Below, piece after piece: positions 1 to 49,456 of a stretch of 64,000 bases of DNA. Each line of letters begins with the position of its first letter. The stretch's first letter is position 1. Where the stretch lies: the sequence record ON645936.1; one strand, 5' to 3'. The notes under the pieces were generated by a model. The model saw nothing but the letters and a program-made list of their open reading frames with translations, did not search any database and had not been told where the DNA came from. The stretch comes from Escherichia phage N2. Position numbers and translations under genes: made by a program.

Positions 1-2925
<2,925 letters not shown>

Positions 2926-40630: not shown

Positions 40631-42218
<1,588 letters not shown>

Positions 42219-42226
42219 AATAAAAT

Positions 42227-42240
42227 GGGCCTTGCGGCCC
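42227..42240 (-). promoter_or_regulatory. hairpin bridging a distant SD (GGAG) to the denA start codon
   Basis: TAAGGAGU-GGGCC GCAA GGCCC-AUUUUAUU-AUG on minus strand. Confidence 0.45.
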
Positions 42241-42245
42241 ACTCC

Positions 42246-43424
42246 TTAAAAATATTTTTTAAAACTCATCATAACTTTATCATCAACATCATTATCAATC
42301 TGTGCTACAAGGTAAGATGACAGTTCTACTTCTTGTGGTGCAGATTGAACATTATCAGAATTAAGGTATTCACGAATCCAAGGATATGGATGTTTAACCG
42401 GAGCATCGGTAATTGGACATGGAAGACCACACTGTTTCATACGAGATACAGTTAAGTAATCAATAAAGCTCCACATGCTATTTGTATTTAATCCAGGAAC
42501 ATCGCCATCTTTAAATAAATGAACTGCCCAATCTTTTTCTTGGCGGTTAACTTCCATGAAAATATCAACTGCTTCTTGTTCACACTCTTGAGCAATTTTA
42601 ACCCATTCATCACCATCAGTACCGGATTGAAGTTGACGAATAATATATTGAGTGCCTTTAAGGTGAAGCTGCTCATCACGTGCAATGAACTTCATAATCT
42701 TGGCATTACCTTCCATGATTTCCATGTTCTTATGGAAGTTAAAGGTACATGCAAAAGATACATAAAAACGAATAGCTTCTAAGGCATTAATAACGTGCAA
42801 ACAGAGGTAAAGAGATTTCATTAGTGCTCGTTTAGCTTCGGCTTCTTGTTTAATAGCTCGATTTAAACGAAAAACAGCATCAGGAGATTCTTTAGCTAGT
42901 TCTGTAAATTCTTTAGCATTTTCCCATTCACGGGTTTTAGTCAGAACATCATCATAATAGCGACCGATAGATTCAGCACGTTTCATAATAGCTTTATCTA
43001 GTACAATCTCATCAAATACCTTCGATGGATCAGTATAAAGATTTCGCATGATATGAGTATATGAACGACTGTGAATAGTTTCACTAAAAGTCCATGTAGC
43101 AACCCATGTATCAAGGCTTGGGTCTGAAATTAATGACATAAGTACAGCAGACGGCGCACGACCTTGAATACTATCAAGTAATGATTGATACTTCAGATTA
43201 TTAGTAAAAATATTTTGTTGATACTGAGGAAGCTTATTAAACTGTGCAGCATCCATCATCAAGTTTACTTCTTCCGGACGCCAGAAAAACGAGAGCGAAC
43301 GTTCAATAAGTTCTTCAAATACTCGATGCCGTTGAATATCATAACGCGCAATACCAAGACCTGAACCAAAAAACATAGGTTCTTTTAAAACATCGACCTG
43401 TTTAGTATTAAAAACTGTACTCAT
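42246..43424 (-). CDS. nrdB: ribonucleotide reductase small subunit, uninterrupted
   Basis: 392-aa continuous ORF with di-iron/radical subunit character. Confidence 0.93.
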   Translation of the reverse strand: MSTVFNTKQVDVLKEPMFFGSGLGIARYDIQRHRVFEELIERSLSFFWRPEEVNLMMDAAQFNKLPQYQQNIFTNNLKYQSLLDSIQGRAPSAVLMSLISDPSLDTWVATWTFSETIHSRSYTHIMRNLYTDPSKVFDEIVLDKAIMKRAESIGRYYDDVLTKTREWENAKEFTELAKESPDAVFRLNRAIKQEAEAKRALMKSLYLCLHVINALEAIRFYVSFACTFNFHKNMEIMEGNAKIMKFIARDEQLHLKGTQYIIRQLQSGTDGDEWVKIAQECEQEAVDIFMEVNRQEKDWAVHLFKDGDVPGLNTNSMWSFIDYLTVSRMKQCGLPCPITDAPVKHPYPWIREYLNSDNVQSAPQEVELSSYLVAQIDNDVDDKVMMSFKKYF

Positions 43425-45016
43425 TATTTTGTCCTGTAAACTAAATTTCCACAGTCCCAGATTCTTCTAAGACCATTTGCATAACAATTTTCTACTTCAG
43501 TTATTGTATCATCATAATTTTTAAGCTTGTTTTTAAGCTTATGTTTCATATAGCTTGAGCGGTGAAATACCTCTCCTTTATCGACGTACCAATAACATGG
43601 CTCAGAGATATGACTAAATTCCATGACAGAGTCATAAACATTTGATAATGTACTGCACCATCTTCGATTGCCATAAGATAGACAATTAATTCCTTTTAAT
43701 AATTTTGAGGCTCCTCCTACAACACAAACCCCTAATTTTGAACACATCCTTAAAAGTTCATCACCTGAGCTATATCTAGATTTACCGATAGAAATAATTT
43801 GAACTAACTCATTATTGTAATAAAGTCCTTTATACGTATGAGCTCCTGAGCAAAATCCTTGAAGATGATTCTTATTAATAAATTCTTTTGCCTCATCCTT
43901 ATTAACAAACCGTGCTTTGCATTTTCGGGCTGGTATTCTTTCTGATAATCCTAATTTATGCTTTATAATGGATTTCCAGATCTCTCTTTTTGTATCATCA
44001 ATCCATTCATTTTCGAAGATGTGAAGTAATTGAATTCCTTGTGCTTCACACATCTCTGTCTTCATCAAATGATAAGTTTCTTTAATTTTATCTGTTTCCT
44101 TTGACCCGCTAGAATGCCAATAAATTCCATCGTATTCTATAGCCAATTTTTTCTCAGGAATGTAAATATCTAATTCATACGGAGGAATAATTTTTCTAGT
44201 TTCTACGCAATCAAATCCTAGATCTAAAATGAATTGCTCTATAGAACTTTGAGTATAATGAACGTCAATTAGTCCTTTGGATGAAAGAGCTCTATAAGCC
44301 GTCATCCGAGAACAATTTGCTAATTGTTGTAGTTCTTCTATAGAAATTTTGTAATTGATTTTATCTAGTATATCATGATTAATATGACCGTTATTTTTAA
44401 TAGATTTTCCTATAGATGAATATAACGATGCCTTATATTCTTCAGTCCAATTTAATTTAGTCTTCTTAGATTTTTCGCGAGATTTTCTAGAATGCAGAAT
44501 ATCAACTGATTTACCGTTTTCTATAACTTTTCTCGCTTCTTTCACACTTTCTAATTGTGAATTATGCGTTACCCCATATCGTTCAATTAAAGTTTTTCTA
44601 TTTTTATTTCTTGAAATTTTTTGATGAGTTGTTCCATATTTTTCTAAAGAATTTTTGTGTTGAAGTTCAGACAAATATTTTTTATATTTTTCTTTTCCGC
44701 CAAAATTTGTATCACGGCTTTGAATTCTCTTATCCGCGAAAAATATCCCTGCGCAGGATTTACTACATGTTGCTGGAAATACACGTTTCTTTGCTGTTTT
44801 CAGAGAAATGAAATTTCCACAAACTGCACATTTTAGATCGTTAATGTCAATGCCTTCCATAATTTGGAACACATTGAGCTTAAAATCTATTCCATCAGTT
44901 AGAAGAGCTTTATCTTCTTCTGTTAGTCTAGATTTAAGTTTTTCTTCTCCAAATGGAAGAAACTTTCCGTTTTTGTATATATTATCAAACATAGCGTTAT
45001 TCTTAGTTAACCACAT
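43424..45016 (-). CDS. multidomain putative homing endonuclease: Cys-pair zinc ribbon, Lys-rich linker, Vsr/DUF559-like PD-(D/E)xK motif, unknown C-terminal domain
   Basis: 530-aa ORF between nrdB and nrdA; motifs CAVCGN..CSKSCAG and YELDIYIPEKKLAIEYDGIYWHS. Confidence 0.6.
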   Translation of the reverse strand: MWLTKNNAMFDNIYKNGKFLPFGEEKLKSRLTEEDKALLTDGIDFKLNVFQIMEGIDINDLKCAVCGNFISLKTAKKRVFPATCSKSCAGIFFADKRIQSRDTNFGGKEKYKKYLSELQHKNSLEKYGTTHQKISRNKNRKTLIERYGVTHNSQLESVKEARKVIENGKSVDILHSRKSREKSKKTKLNWTEEYKASLYSSIGKSIKNNGHINHDILDKINYKISIEELQQLANCSRMTAYRALSSKGLIDVHYTQSSIEQFILDLGFDCVETRKIIPPYELDIYIPEKKLAIEYDGIYWHSSGSKETDKIKETYHLMKTEMCEAQGIQLLHIFENEWIDDTKREIWKSIIKHKLGLSERIPARKCKARFVNKDEAKEFINKNHLQGFCSGAHTYKGLYYNNELVQIISIGKSRYSSGDELLRMCSKLGVCVVGGASKLLKGINCLSYGNRRWCSTLSNVYDSVMEFSHISEPCYWYVDKGEVFHRSSYMKHKLKNKLKNYDDTITEVENCYANGLRRIWDCGNLVYRTK

Positions 45017-45032
45017 CCTTGTGGTAATTATA

Positions 45033-47297
45033 TCATAATTTACAGGATGAACAATCTTCAGCTTTTGGAGTTTCTATTTCGTAATCATCAGTACCGGAAC
45101 CGTCGCGGGTATTATGATAATAGAAATTTTTTCCGCCAAAATACCAAAAATACAAAAGGTCATCAATCATTATTGACATTGGAACCTTTCCTTTTGGAAA
45201 AATCTGCGGGTCATAATATGTATTCGCTGAAGCTGATTGACATACCCATTTCAACATAATAGCTACTTGCGTAAGATAAGGTTTATTACCTTTCTTAGCT
45301 AATTTCCACGTATAATCATAGAGGTCTATGTTATGCTCAATATTGGGCACGACTTGATTAAAGGAACCCTCTTTTGATTCTTTAACAGAGACTGGTCCAC
45401 GTGGAGGCTCGATACCGTTTGTACTGTTAGAAACTTGGGAAGATGACTCACATGGCATAAGTGCTGATAATGTGCTATTACGGATGCCAAAGAGCTTAAG
45501 GTCTTCCCGCAGCGACGACCAGTCACAAACGTATTTTGGAGCTGCGATTTGGTCAATCTTTTTATTGTACCAGTCGATAGGTAATTCGCCTCGAGACCAA
45601 CGAGTGTCTGAATAATATTCGCAAGGTCCTTTTTCTTTGGCGAGCTTAATGGATGCTTTAATGAGTCCATACTGTAATCTCTCAAATAGTTCATGTGTTA
45701 AATCGTTAGCATCTTCATAAGAAGCAAAGTTACTTGCCAGCCAAGCTGCATAGTTAGTAACACCTACACCGAGGTTACGACGCTTTTTAGCTTTTTCTGC
45801 TTCAGGAACTGGATATCCTTGGTAATCCAAAAGATTATCAAGAGCACGAACTTGAACTTCTGCCAATTCATTAATTTTATCTTGGTCTTGCCAATCGAAG
45901 TTATCTAATACAAATGCGCTAAGGGTACACAATCCAATTTCAGCATCAGGACTATTCACATCATTTGTTGGAATAGCAATTTCACAGCACAAGTTACTCT
46001 GACGAATAGGTGCCTTTTCACGAATAAACGGAGTATAGTTATTCGTATTATCAATGAACTGCACATAAATCCTTGCTGTTCCTGAACGTTCAGTCATGAG
46101 CAATTCAAATAGTTCACGGGCTTTAATACGCTTTTTGCGAATATTAGGGTCTTTTTCTGCGGCTTCATACAATTCACGGAAACGGTCTTGGTCTTTAAAA
46201 TAAGAATAATAAAGCTCGCCACCCATTTCGTGTGGACTGAACAAAGTAATGTAGTCGTTCTTTCCAAAACGTTCCATCATCAAATCATTCAGTTGAACGC
46301 CATAATCCATATGACGGATACGGTTTTCTTCTACGCCTTTGTTATTTTTCAAAACGAGAAGATTTTCAACTTCCAAATGCCAAATAGGATAATAAGCAGT
46401 AGCAGCGCCGCCACGAATTCCGCCTTGTGAACATGATTTAACAGCAGTCTGAAAATGTTTCCAAAAAGGAATAACGCCAGTATGACGCACTTCACCTGTG
46501 CCAATCTTAGAACCTTCGGCACGAATCATACCAACGTTAATACCAATTCCAGCGCGTTTGGAGATATATTCAACAATTGAAGCAGAAGCCTTATTGATAG
46601 ACTTCAGCGAATCACCTGCTTCAATAACAACGCATGAACTAAACTGTCGAGTTGGAGTACGACAACCAGCCATAATAGGAGTTGGCAATGAAATCTGTCG
46701 AGTAGATACTGCTTCATAAAAACGGATAACGTGTTTTAATCTATCAACAGGTTCATCTTGATGCAATGCCATTCCAATAGTCATAAATGCAAACTGTGGA
46801 GTTTCATAAATTTGACCAGTGGTTTTATCTTTAACGAGATATTTTTCTTTTAATTGCATCGCCCCGGAATAAGTAAATTCCATATCCCGCTCGTGCTTAA
46901 TTTTTGATTCTAAAAATGTAATTTCTTCTGCTGAATATTTTGACAATAATTCAGGGTCATATTTACCTTCATTTACACAGTAAGAAATATGGTCAATAAA
47001 TGAACGGGGCTCATACTGTCCGTACACGTGTTTACGAAGAGCAAACATTAAACAGCGTGCAGCTACGTATTGATAATCAGGCTCTTCAACTGAAATAGAA
47101 TTCGCAGCAGCCTTAATTACAATGGTTTGAATGTCATCAGTGGTCATTCCATCACGGAGATATGATTTAATATTTTCATATAATTCATAAGGATCTACTG
47201 ATGTTCCTTCAGCTGCCCAAGATAAAACTTTAATAATTTTTTGTGGGTCAAAGCTCTGAGAAACACCACTACTTTTGATAACATTAATTAATTGCAT
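45033..47297 (-). CDS. nrdA: ribonucleotide reductase large subunit
   Basis: 754-aa ORF from MQLINVIKSSG with GAGGA SD; the 29-codon upstream extension in the track is rejected. Confidence 0.95.
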   Translation of the reverse strand: MQLINVIKSSGVSQSFDPQKIIKVLSWAAEGTSVDPYELYENIKSYLRDGMTTDDIQTIVIKAAANSISVEEPDYQYVAARCLMFALRKHVYGQYEPRSFIDHISYCVNEGKYDPELLSKYSAEEITFLESKIKHERDMEFTYSGAMQLKEKYLVKDKTTGQIYETPQFAFMTIGMALHQDEPVDRLKHVIRFYEAVSTRQISLPTPIMAGCRTPTRQFSSCVVIEAGDSLKSINKASASIVEYISKRAGIGINVGMIRAEGSKIGTGEVRHTGVIPFWKHFQTAVKSCSQGGIRGGAATAYYPIWHLEVENLLVLKNNKGVEENRIRHMDYGVQLNDLMMERFGKNDYITLFSPHEMGGELYYSYFKDQDRFRELYEAAEKDPNIRKKRIKARELFELLMTERSGTARIYVQFIDNTNNYTPFIREKAPIRQSNLCCEIAIPTNDVNSPDAEIGLCTLSAFVLDNFDWQDQDKINELAEVQVRALDNLLDYQGYPVPEAEKAKKRRNLGVGVTNYAAWLASNFASYEDANDLTHELFERLQYGLIKASIKLAKEKGPCEYYSDTRWSRGELPIDWYNKKIDQIAAPKYVCDWSSLREDLKLFGIRNSTLSALMPCESSSQVSNSTNGIEPPRGPVSVKESKEGSFNQVVPNIEHNIDLYDYTWKLAKKGNKPYLTQVAIMLKWVCQSASANTYYDPQIFPKGKVPMSIMIDDLLYFWYFGGKNFYYHNTRDGSGTDDYEIETPKAEDCSSCKL

Positions 47298-47352: not shown

Positions 47353-48084
47353 ATGAAATCTGGAATATATGCTATTATAAACACTAAAACTAATAAGCAC
47401 TATATAGGAAGTGCAATTAATTTTGAAGAACGATGGAAACGACACTTTAAAGATTTAGATAATGGAAATCATCATTCAATAAAGCTGCAGCGTTCTTATA
47501 ATAAGCATGGTAAAGATGCTTTCGTATGTAAAATCATAGAAGAACTTCCATACGAAAAATCTATCATTATTGAACGTGAAAATTATTGGATGCATGAATA
47601 TGACTCAAAGGAAAATGGGTATAATATAGCAGACGCATCGTTTGGGGATACCTTATCTCATCACCCAAGAAAGCAAGAAATCCTTAATAAAATTTCAAAT
47701 GCAATTAAAAATAATAATTCAAAATTATCACCAGAAGAACTTAAGCAAAAACATGGTAGACCTAGAGACATCAAAGGTAAAACTATAGAAGAACACTATG
47801 GGTTAGATCGTGCTATAGAAATAAGCAAAAAGTTCCAAGAAAGAAACGCTGCACTTAATATGAAAGGCATCAATAATCCATATTACGGACAGACGCATAC
47901 CAATGAAGTTAGAAAACGAATTTCTGACTCACAGAGAGGTAAAAAGAAACCCCATCTAAGAGTAAGTATAGATGGGGTAGAATATCCAACAATAGCAGAA
48001 GCTGTGCGTCAAACCGGAATAAGCAGAAAACTTATATCTAAAAGATGCGCTCTAGATTGCTGGGAATCATATTTATACTGCTAA
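47353..48084 (+). CDS. free-standing GIY-YIG homing endonuclease of the I-TevI family
   Basis: 243-aa ORF; N-terminal [46 protein letters not shown] closely parallels I-TevI catalytic domain; TATAAATA late promoter and AGGAG SD upstream. Confidence 0.85.
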
Positions 48085-48653: not shown

Positions 48654-48907
48654 CATTATGTTCAGATAAGGTCGTTAATCTTATCCCGGAATTATATCCA
48701 GCTGCATGTCACCATACAGATCAGACTATATCTCCATCTTGATGAAGCAAGATGTCTATCGTTTCGAGTCACTTGACCCTACTCCCCAAAGGGATAGTCG
48801 TTAGGCATTTAGTTCAAAAGAACATTTAGCACGGGATTGTCTACTAGAGAGGTTCCCCGTTTAGATAGATTACAAGTATAAGTCACCTTATACTCAGGCC
48901 TCAATTA
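48654..48907 (-). ncRNA. group I self-splicing intron in td, ORF-less (about 254 nt)
   Basis: Starts UAAUUGAGGCCUGAGUAUAAGGUGACUUAUACUUGUAAUCUAUCUAAACGGGGAACC after exon-1 ...CUUGGGU, ends ...CUGAACAUAAUG before exon 2, matching remembered T4 td intron ends. Confidence 0.85.
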
Positions 48908-49456
48908 ACCCAAGAACACGTCAACACTTCTTTGATACCACTGCAAATCCAAATAGCCATTACGCACATTAAACTGATAGAACATATGACAAGGCGGTAA
49001 TGCCATTTGCTTGAGTTCAGCTGGATTCCATGCAGAAACAACTTGACGTCTATCATTTGGCAGTTTTTTAATACGATCAATAACTTCTACAATTTGGTCT
49101 ACACCACCAAAATCACGCCACTGTTTTCCATAAATTGGACCAAGTTCACCACTATGATATCCTAAATCTTTTGCTTGATTTTCGTAATTTTCATCCCAGA
49201 CTGTTTTGCCTTGAATTAATGAATCGTGTTGAATTAATCGTAAATCATTGACATTTGTGCTTCCTGATAAAAACCAAAGTAGCTCAGCAATGCAAGCTTT
49301 CCAGGCGAGCTTCTTAGTTGTTACTGCAGGAAAACCTTTAGTTAAATCCCAGCGTAATTTAGTACCGAACAAAGCAATTGTTCCTGTGCCTGTTCGGTCA
49401 TCAGTTTCATAGCCATTTTCAAAAATGTCTTTAATTAAATCTTGGTATTGTTTCAT
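48908..49456 (-). CDS. td: thymidylate synthase, exon 1
   Basis: 183 codons ending ...QRSVDVFLG, followed by in-frame UAA at intron start. Confidence 0.9.

Follow-up and report, generated by a model that had tools for sequence, protein, structure and literature searches.

The window analyzed here is a stretch of 64,000 nucleotides from Escherichia phage N2 (ON645936.1), and its ORF listing gives a single ORF of 530 amino acids (aa) at the nrdA-nrdB junction. The initial annotation had pointed to a large ORF separating the two genes; this ORF is real, at 43424..45016, and its strand is corrected here to minus. The features of the locus are the following.

45033..47297, minus strand: nrdA, the upstream flank, intact, 754 codons
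45017..45032, minus strand: 16-nucleotide (nt) spacer from the nrdA stop to the initial ATG of the hef ORF; the homology with the empty-site and T4 junctions breaks off inside it
45002..45010, minus strand: TTAACTAAG, 9 nt left over from the nrdA-nrdB spacer of empty sites, just upstream of Met9, from comparison with the empty junctions of RB14 and AV119
43424..45016, minus strand: hef, maximal ORF, 530 codons plus stop, from the ORF listing, identity with U5 Hef, and PHROG 3339
43424..44992, minus strand: hef, probable true coding sequence from Met9, 522 aa, from homolog starts, tblastn, pLDDT, and annotations
42246..43424, minus strand: nrdB, the downstream flank, intron-less here

The nrdB ATG shares one base with the hef stop codon TAA, and the nrdB Shine-Dalgarno sequence AGGA lies within the final hef codons. 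The GC content of hef (31.1%) is lower than that of its neighbours (32 to 38%), and the window holds no second copy of the gene. As for expression signals, a sigma-70 scan around hef gave no enrichment (10 sites versus 10.2 expected), no terminators were found in the hef scan, and no late-promoter consensus was found for hef. The coding strand from 45400 to 43380 contains neither TATAAATA nor a MotA box, not even its TGCTT core. T4, in contrast to the hef cassette with no coding-strand TGCTT, has the MotA-box-like AATGCTTTA upstream of nrdB, inside nrdB.1.

The nearest distinct homologs, P0002, P0003, P0004, and P0010 (75, 73, 65, and 50% identity), have the N terminus MFDNI..., which equals Met9 of the ORF, encoded by the ATG at window position 44992. 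Since these closest distinct homologs all begin in this way, the Hef product is probably a protein of 522 aa starting at Met9, not the 530-aa maximal ORF. In tblastn, the alignments of phiR1-RT and Acj9 start at Hef query residue 9; residues 1 to 6 have a pLDDT of <50 in the predicted structure; and Met9 is also the start chosen in the LH2 and F26 annotations. The U5 record differs in its annotated start, which lies 14 codons further upstream and yields 544 aa; it needs an ATG at a codon that reads AAG in the window.

The protein is identical to U5 Hef (ABI48935.1, annotated as "homing endonuclease") at 527 of 530 residues (99.4% over all 530 aa), the three substitutions being A89S, R177K, and S417T. 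At the nucleotide level the two genes are 99.6% identical, and both flanks fall below the gene's own similarity (95.8% for the 3′ end of nrdA and 86.5% for nrdB exon 1), a pattern that fits recent horizontal spread of hef itself. The two loci agree in the order nrdA-hef-nrdB and in the stop/start overlap with nrdB, but nrdB of U5 has the I-TevIII intron. PHROG 3339, "homing endonuclease," matches the ORF at an E value of 3e-151, and the database holds >2,600 Hef homologs at an E value of ≤1e-5, so that the motifs quoted in the initial annotation are beyond chance. The ORF is, with high confidence, hef ("homing endonuclease-like function"), which T4-like phages carry as a free-standing homing endonuclease gene. 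U5 Hef has been described as a free-standing homing endonuclease that replaces mobE (Sandegren, Nord & Sjoberg 2005, NAR 33:6203), and it is reported to be an active, site-specific enzyme cutting near its own gene, with preferential inheritance in mixed infections. Hef-type enzymes were later assigned to the Vsr-like EDxHD family of I-Bth0305I (Taylor et al. 2011). Earlier reading of the window was right to place a homing endonuclease gene in the mobE slot but wrong to call it far larger than, and architecturally distinct from, hef-type genes, as the ORF is hef. The gene, its locus, and its nuclease class are already known, and the finding is ordinary; a further copy of a published homing gene at a published locus matters little.

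Homology to T4 ends at window position 45019 and restarts at 43425, so that the hef cassette takes the exact place of the 682 bp that hold mobE and nrdB.1. The comparative genomics of the junction that had been proposed as a check revealed three states, empty, mobE, and hef, at one junction with conserved flanks. Sixty records were taken at even steps among the 661 records matching the flanks (800-nt probe); in about 31 of these the junction was empty (a span of 835 to 836 bp), and in about 11 it held an insert of mobE size. The nrdA-nrdB junction is empty in most relatives, and hef is sporadic: just 16 phage records encode a Hef at least 99% identical, versus the 661 with matching junction flanks. 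The gene is shared by about 15 other sequenced phages of the T4-like group, and the ORF is full-length and intact in all of the approximately 16 carriers. Yersinia phage phiR1-RT and Acinetobacter phage Acj9 also have orthologs between nrdA and nrdB (65% and 50% identity, respectively), and phage RPN226 has a 43% paralog elsewhere in its genome, flanked by the capsid vertex gene and the major capsid gene. The family is multicopy, since 1,041 copies were found in 420 phage records. MobE of T4 also occupies the nrdA-nrdB slot and targets the 5′ part of nrdB, but it is an unrelated 141-aa HNH protein. A 144-aa GIY-YIG ORF beside nrdB was considered as a seg-type homing gene and rejected because it has the position of denA (endonuclease II) and an equal length.

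Hef is built from a zinc-ribbon-like motif, YG repeats, and a helix-turn-helix (HTH)-like segment, followed by a Vsr-like nuclease and a C-terminal Mom-like GNAT domain, with the following positions.

44753..44830, minus strand: zinc-ribbon-like motif CxxC...CxxxC (C63, C66, C84, and C88), from Cys conservation and a weak Pfam match
44561..44704, minus strand: helical "YG" repeats (FGG / EKYGTTHQ / ERYGVTHN, period of about 20 aa), a DUF7487-type region, from sequence reading
44279..44353, minus strand: HTH-like segment, aa 222 to 246, ISIEELQQLANCSRMTAYRALSSKG
43952..44266, minus strand: Vsr-like nuclease domain of the EDxHD family, aa 251 to 355
43427..43951, minus strand: C-terminal Mom-like GNAT-fold domain, aa 356 to 530, the best-conserved part of the family

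Both N-terminal motifs named in the initial annotation are present. The paired cysteines (C63/C66 and C84/C88) are kept in 80 to 81 of 85 homologs and give a weak match to Pfam Zn_ribbon_TFIIB (E = 0.22), and the repeats EKYGTTHQ and ERYGVTHN lie at aa 125 to 132 and aa 145 to 152. The number of YG repeats differs among relatives, the conserved residues of the region being G106, G128, Y147, and G148; the Pfam DUF7487 model scores 16.6 bits on Hef here, below its cut-off, and 31.3 bits on the relative P0011. Pfam searches with the isolated N- and C-terminal halves yielded only subthreshold noise (RPAP2_Rtr1, Zn_ribbon_TFIIB, and DUF7487), and an NCBIfam scan of Hef gave no match. The variable N-terminal part, with its zinc ribbon, YG repeats, and HTH, presumably gives target specificity.

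The suggested resemblance of YELDIYIPEKKLAIEYDGIYWHS (aa 280 to 302) to a Vsr/DUF559 PD-(D/E)xK core was a correct guess, and one already published (Taylor et al. 2011). A Vsr-like nuclease fold is present in Hef. In hmmsearch against the PDB, the domain profile matched I-Bth0305I (3r3p) at an E value of 1.9e-5, and PADLOC HEase matched the Hef nuclease at 3.7e-5; the single Hef sequence reached only 0.029 against I-Bth0305I. Predicted active-site residues are D283, E294, D296, H301, H316, and K319, among which D283, E294, H301, and H316 would form the nuclease active site. All 85 of the sequences compared keep D283 and H301, which align with the positions mutated in 3r3p (D196A and H213A), D283 corresponding to the metal-binding Asp (D196; Vsr D51) and H301 to the general-base His (H213; Vsr H69). 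Where the motif has its first Glu (E170; Vsr E25), both this protein and U5 Hef have Q256, versus Glu in 75 of the 85 relatives. At the last Asp (D222; Vsr D97) the profile alignment places the invariant H316, D309 (60/85) being the alternative under other gapping. Judged by this alignment, the active site is not a textbook EDxHD, because Q256 replaces the Glu and H316 the final Asp; U5 Hef, which is reported to be active, carries the same residues.

I-Bth0305I, the prototype of the EDxHD/Vsr-like homing endonucleases, is intron encoded and 266 aa long, with the nuclease domain at its end, whereas Hef is free-standing and twice that length, with another N-terminal region and an added C-terminal Mom-like domain. 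E. coli Vsr (1cw0) differs from Hef in being a repair enzyme that nicks specifically at mismatches and that has a zinc site of its own and Trp residues that intercalate. DUF559 proteins (3hrl) were also compared; the DUF559 model scored 16.0 bits on Hef versus a gathering cut-off of 20.6, and MTES_1575 scored 22.0 versus 38.2. No Pfam HNH model matched Hef at an E value of ≤1, and the label "HNH endonuclease" that PHROG 559 offers for Hef is supported by neither fold nor motif.

The less familiar point of the case is the Mom-like resemblance of the Hef tail. The C-terminal domain has a GNAT fold whose nearest solved structure is Mom, and hhalign relates the two at an E value of 9.6e-6 (83% probability). 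The sequence identity to Mu Mom is only about 19 to 20%. An HMM of the Hef domain scored at best 12 to 18 bits on Mom proteins, versus ≤9.3 for shuffled copies, most of the scores being lower (median, 6.9). The Pfam Mom model (PF25680) has no match on Hef here; on relatives it gives 16 to 27 bits against a cut-off of 27.1, which only P0112 attains. BLASTP of the domain against Mu Mom was insignificant (E = 2.5). The relationship to Mom is detectable by profiles and structure, unlike by pairwise BLASTP.

Five of the seven Mom catalytic residues are kept in Hef, namely, H58 (H384), R111 (R423), S124 (S437), R151 (R452), and Y159 (Y461), each in 83 to 85 of the 85 sequences, and two are changed, Y59 to L385 and D149 to N450 (Asn in 74/85 and Asp in 11). 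Mom of phage Mu requires R111, S124, and R151, and R111 is peculiar to Mom within the GNAT superfamily. Mu Mom (PDB 8bv8) is a stand-alone, Gly-tRNA-dependent DNA adenine aminoacyltransferase of about 240 aa; Hef is not known to have a modification activity. The highly conserved Mom-like domain of Hef presumably has a target-independent role, in general DNA handling or binding, dimerisation, or possibly catalysis. We tentatively consider, as a possibility on the less likely side, that the Hef family is bifunctional and that the C-terminal domain is a putative acyl- or aminoacyltransferase on DNA, which might mark, protect, or process DNA in homing.

The 5′ part of nrdB was compared between 8 hef+ and 8 hef− genomes, and two clusters of hef-linked variants were found.

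43398..43404, minus strand: hef-linked nrdB cluster 1, nt 21 to 27, N8K and P9Q, in 8/8 hef+ versus 0/8 hef− genomes
43176..43218, minus strand: hef-linked nrdB cluster 2, nt 207, 244, 246, and 249, from the same comparison

Cluster 1 is fixed in the hef+ genomes. Cluster 2 is synonymous throughout, with changes at codons L82-L83, adjoining the codon of D84, which we take to be the counterpart of the Asp that ligates iron in E. coli R2. A 66-nt nrdB probe gave a bimodal distribution of identities, in which the 17 of 808 records at ≥95% are the hef+ phages plus AV119/AV120 and all others are at ≤90.9%; AV119 is an empty-junction recombinant bearing only the distal hef-type cluster. The nrdB interval between the clusters is shuffled among hef+ phages, and Manna is T4-like there. 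The synonymous cluster at codons 82-83 is a candidate Hef immunity or target region, and the phages may protect themselves by nrdB divergence, codons 82-83 and possibly codons 8-9 marking the resistant allele. The variants could also be plain hitch-hiking, the detailed comparison comprising 8 versus 8 genomes. MobE immunity was rejected as their cause, since MobE nicks nrdB at codon 42, away from codons 7-9 and 69-83, where the hef-linked variants lie.

In the homing mechanism that we propose, Hef would act when a related phage that lacks hef infects the same cell: it would cut that phage's nrdB in the 5′ part, the hef+ genome would then serve as the repair template, and hef and its flanks would be copied into the nrdA-nrdB junction.

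A different reading takes the Mom-like domain as the starting point. Iyer et al. (2021, Viruses 13:63) described jumbo-phage proteins in which, as in Hef, an REase-fold nuclease is joined to a Mom-family GNAT domain, and read these fusions as restriction plus protection; Hef is unmentioned in that review. Applied to Hef, the proposal would make it a restriction-modification-like conflict module, in which the Mom-like domain modifies the phage's own adenines, the nuclease degrades DNA of the host or of competitors that lacks the modification, and homing is a by-product. The strong conservation of the C-terminal domain and its five retained Mom residues, including the essential R111, S124, and R151 with the Mom-specific R111, speak for such a module, but we regard it as unlikely. 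U5 Hef is reported to act as a homing enzyme with a specific cleavage site close to hef itself. Orthologs at nrdA-nrdB across three genera, paralogs by other conserved genes, and multiple copies per genome form the signature of a selfish element, and the private nrdB allele of hef+ genomes, with its clustered synonymous changes, suggests that sequence rather than modification provides the protection. Moreover, Hef has Leu in place of Mom Y59, and 74 of 85 sequences have Asn in place of D149. T-even phage DNA is, besides, already hypermodified.

That hef is instead a decaying or domesticated homing gene, no longer cutting and kept only for the nrdB translation signals inside it, is very improbable. 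Q256 in place of the family's conserved Glu, the Shine-Dalgarno sequence in the last hef codons with the stop/start overlap, and the failure to find a promoter of its own would agree with decay; against it, the ORF is intact in its carriers, differs by 3 aa from U5 Hef, which has Q256 too and is reported to be active, retains all the remaining predicted catalytic residues, and is better conserved than its flanks. The initial suggestion of a different or novel homing endonuclease family, distinct from mobE and hef, has practically no chance of being right, for although the curated Pfam and NCBIfam models stay below threshold and a naive domain scan looks "unknown," a named, published Hef is 99.4% identical at the equal locus, the ORF belongs to PHROG 3339, and the Hef family had been placed in the EDxHD/Vsr-like lineage in 2011.

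The case illustrates how a protein already described may pass for new in curated domain libraries. For specialists, nrdB codons 82-83 offer a concrete candidate for a Hef resistance or target site. The Mom-like tail with most Mom catalytic residues is now testable, the use of Gly-tRNA by Mom being known, and a bifunctional Hef, if true, would connect the literatures on Hef/EDxHD homing and on Mom "momylation" and REase fusions, which do not yet cite each other.

A single long ORF was confirmed between nrdA and nrdB, where the initial annotation had placed one. The features of the locus are as follows.

43424..45016, minus strand: maximal hef ORF, a single long ORF of 530 aa
45033..47297, minus strand: nrdA, the upstream flank of hef, intact in the window
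42246..43424, minus strand: nrdB, the downstream flank of hef, intron-less

The window is a segment of a Tequatrovirus (T4-like) genome; for the 10 kb around hef the best phage record gave 96% coverage and 96% identity, and no single record gave a full match. All of the motifs previously quoted for the ORF were found, namely, the cysteine pairs C63/C66 and C84/C88, EKYGTTHQ (aa 125-132), ERYGVTHN (aa 145-152), and YELDIYIPEKKLAIEYDGIYWHS (aa 280-302). When 50,697 phage records were searched by tblastn, a product at least 99% identical was present in 16, including AY262133 (phage U5), in which the gene lies between nrdA and nrdB and is annotated as "hef: Hef, homing endonuclease." The window protein differs from U5 Hef at 3 of 530 positions (A89S, R177K, and S417T), and it matches PHROG 3339 ("homing endonuclease") end to end (E = 3e-151). 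Thus, by sequence identity, the ORF is hef. Hef was reportedly first described by Sandegren, Nord, and Sjoberg in 2005. The name is short for "homing endonuclease-like function," and the available literature describes the U5 protein as a unique endonuclease in the place of mobE that has endonuclease activity, cuts near its own locus, and cleaves nrdB. The earlier proposal of a homing nuclease therefore holds for a Vsr-type enzyme but not for a new family, since 527 of the 530 residues are those of U5 Hef; nor is the ORF unlike the hef-type genes that replace mobE in relatives, being itself that named U5 gene at the same locus. A hef gene at the nrdA-nrdB junction is already known.

The nrdB ATG and the hef TAA stop codon overlap by one base, and the nrdB Shine-Dalgarno sequence lies within the final hef codons. 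At the other end of the gene, the U5 record places the start of hef 14 codons before that of the window ORF; the ATG used there results from a Glu-to-Asp change in the nrdA frame, which overlaps hef, and the window has AAG at this position. All four of the nearest distinct homologs (75, 73, 65, and 50% identity) open with MFDNI..., corresponding to Met9 of the ORF, and residue 9 is the first to be aligned by tblastn with phiR1-RT and Acj9. In an AlphaFold2 model, for which 85 homologs were used (mean pLDDT, 94.1), residues 1 to 6 have a pLDDT below 50. We infer that the hef product is a 522-aa protein starting at 44992 (Met9). Directly upstream of Met9 is TTAACTAAG, and the identical nine bases precede nrdB in empty-junction phages, suggesting that hef reuses the old nrdB leader.

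Homology to T4 stops at window position 45019, 14 nt beyond the nrdA stop, and restarts at 43425, the base just ahead of the nrdB ATG, so hef stands exactly in place of the 682 bp of T4 that carry mobE and nrdB.1. An 800-nt two-flank probe matched 661 records, 60 of which were sampled at even steps down the ranking; about 31 of these junctions were empty (835- to 836-bp span), and about 11 contained an insert of mobE size. DNA identity of the window to U5 is 99.6% in hef, 95.8% at the nrdA 3′ end, and 86.5% in nrdB exon 1. Judged from these values, the hef cassette is younger than its flanking DNA. It also has the lowest GC content among the local genes (31.1%). The nrdA-nrdB junction also holds an ortholog of hef in Yersinia phage phiR1-RT (Tegunavirus; 65%) and in Acinetobacter phage Acj9 (Twarogvirinae; 50%). 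Phage RPN226 has a 43% paralog elsewhere, on the opposite strand and flanked by the capsid vertex and major capsid genes. The family is large, with over 2,600 protein hits in the database (E ≤ 1e-5), and multicopy (1,041 copies across 420 phage records). A short hairpin-forming sequence was seen in the nrdA-nrdB spacer of empty junctions, TGACTCATGGACGAGTCA in RB14 (locus L004, about 590..607) and its one-base variant TGACTCACGGACGAGTCA in AV119 (locus L020, about 2240..2260); no hairpin of this type is present in the hef cassette.

Scanning of the hef region revealed no enrichment of sigma-70 promoters and no terminator, and neither a MotA box nor a late-promoter consensus was found within or upstream of hef. 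The MotA box core, TGCTT, is absent from the coding strand of hef and the final 370 nt of nrdA (window 43380..45400). In contrast, T4 (locus L003, 6700..7420) carries the MotA-box-like AATGCTTTA upstream of nrdB, within nrdB.1. Thus, nrdB of hef-carrying phages may depend on read-through transcription. Transcripts covering hef and nrdB probably begin upstream of nrdA.

A full-length I-TevI homolog (47353..48084, plus strand), antisense to all of its neighbors, lies between nrdA and the DUF5496/nrdA.2 homolog, in the slot of T4 nrdA.1; its 243-aa product is 46% identical to T4 I-TevI and contains GIY-YIG, NUMOD3, and I-TevI DNA-binding domains. No ORF is present in the window's td group I intron (48702..48917, minus strand; Rfam Intron_gpI, 72.6 bits), and its pairing with a free-standing I-TevI-like gene resembles a system of collaborative homing or trans-homing. 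A comparable opposite-strand endonuclease gene adjoins nrdA in phiR1-RT. Whereas the window nrdB is intron-less, nrdB is split in all seven other hef-carrying phages examined (U5, LH2, FL12, Manna, ESh36, Lv5cm, and F26), most of which carry, behind exon 1, an ORF of the I-TevIII-like or HNH type; identity between the window and U5 drops to 62 to 77% in the 200-nt stretch that precedes the intron insertion site. The annotations of FL12, Manna, and F26 (loci L009, L010, and L013, 1-1184) divide nrdA in two: a homing or HNH endonuclease gene interrupts it about 990 nt short of the 3′ end. This arrangement is reminiscent of Aeromonas phage Aeh1, whose nrdA is split, and differs from the intact window gene. 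The 144-aa GIY-YIG ORF adjoining nrdB (41808..42242, minus strand) has the position and length of T4 denA (endonuclease II), and its candidacy as an extra seg-type homing gene was rejected on these grounds.

Eight genomes with hef were compared with eight lacking it (six with an empty junction and two with mobE) over the 3′-terminal 500 nt of nrdA and the 5′-terminal 670 nt of nrdB. No fixed hef-linked difference was found in the nrdA segment, and those in nrdB fall into two clusters.

nrdB nt 21-27: cluster 1, N8K and P9Q
nrdB nt 207, 244, 246, and 249: cluster 2, all synonymous, with CTT-TTG -> TTA-CTT (codons L82-L83, adjacent to that for D84)

D84 presumably corresponds to the iron-ligand Asp of E. 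coli R2. Between the clusters, nrdB is shuffled among hef-carrying phages, with Manna being T4-like there. A 66-nt probe for the distal cluster matched 808 records, 17 of them at 95% or above and all others at or below 90.9%; the 17 are hef-carrying phages plus AV119 and AV120. Both of the latter have an empty junction and hef-type nrdB from about nt 201; in AV119 (L020, 2236..2964), nt 1-200 are of the empty-site type. These two phages appear, from their sequences, to hold a resistant nrdB allele without the endonuclease gene, and a break near nrdB nt 200-250 followed by a short repair tract would yield exactly the AV119 pattern. The mapped MobE nicks are at nrdB codon 42, in a different part of the gene from the hef-linked clusters. 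Given the linkage, the AV119 recombinant, and the location of the MobE nicks, we propose the distal cluster as a candidate Hef resistance or target region. At codon 42, the MobE nick site in T2, the window has Arg (CGT; 43295..43310 are codons 40-43). The MobE paper gives Arg or Lys for phages carrying mobE and Lys (AAG) for those without it, and the window phage may thus resist MobE as well.

The C-terminal part of Hef (aa 356-530) resembles Mom, a Gly-tRNA-dependent DNA aminoacyltransferase (2026 Mom paper). Profile-profile comparison with 40 Mom sequences gave an E value of 9.6e-6 (probability, 83%); the Pfam Mom model places several Hef relatives at or near its cutoff and gives no match to the window Hef itself. 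With an HMM of the Hef C terminus, the best real Moms scored 12 to 18 bits, versus a maximum of 9.3 bits for shuffled copies, and most scored lower (median, 6.9 bits). The essential residues of Mom are R111, S124, and R151, and H58, Y59, and Y159 are important (2026 Mom paper); R111 is a Mom-specific residue in the GNAT superfamily. In the Mom alignment, H384, R423, S437, R452, and Y461 are retained in 83 to 85 of 85 Hef-family sequences, but the family has Leu at the Mom Y59 position and mostly Asn at that of D149. The Mom-like domain is the best-conserved part of the family, which argues for a generic function rather than target-specific recognition.

Mom-nuclease fusion as such is not new, since Iyer et al. 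2021 noted jumbo phages with Mom domains fused to REase-fold nucleases, read as restriction plus self-protection. Hef is absent from that account, as nucleases and homing are from the 2026 Mom paper; the accessible literature appears to discuss neither the link between this fusion and Hef, a protein characterized experimentally, nor how far the fusion's catalytic residues are intact. A sequence-based resistance region in nrdB would weigh against the need for a protective modification. Catalytic activity of the Mom-like domain in Hef-type enzymes is a testable possibility.
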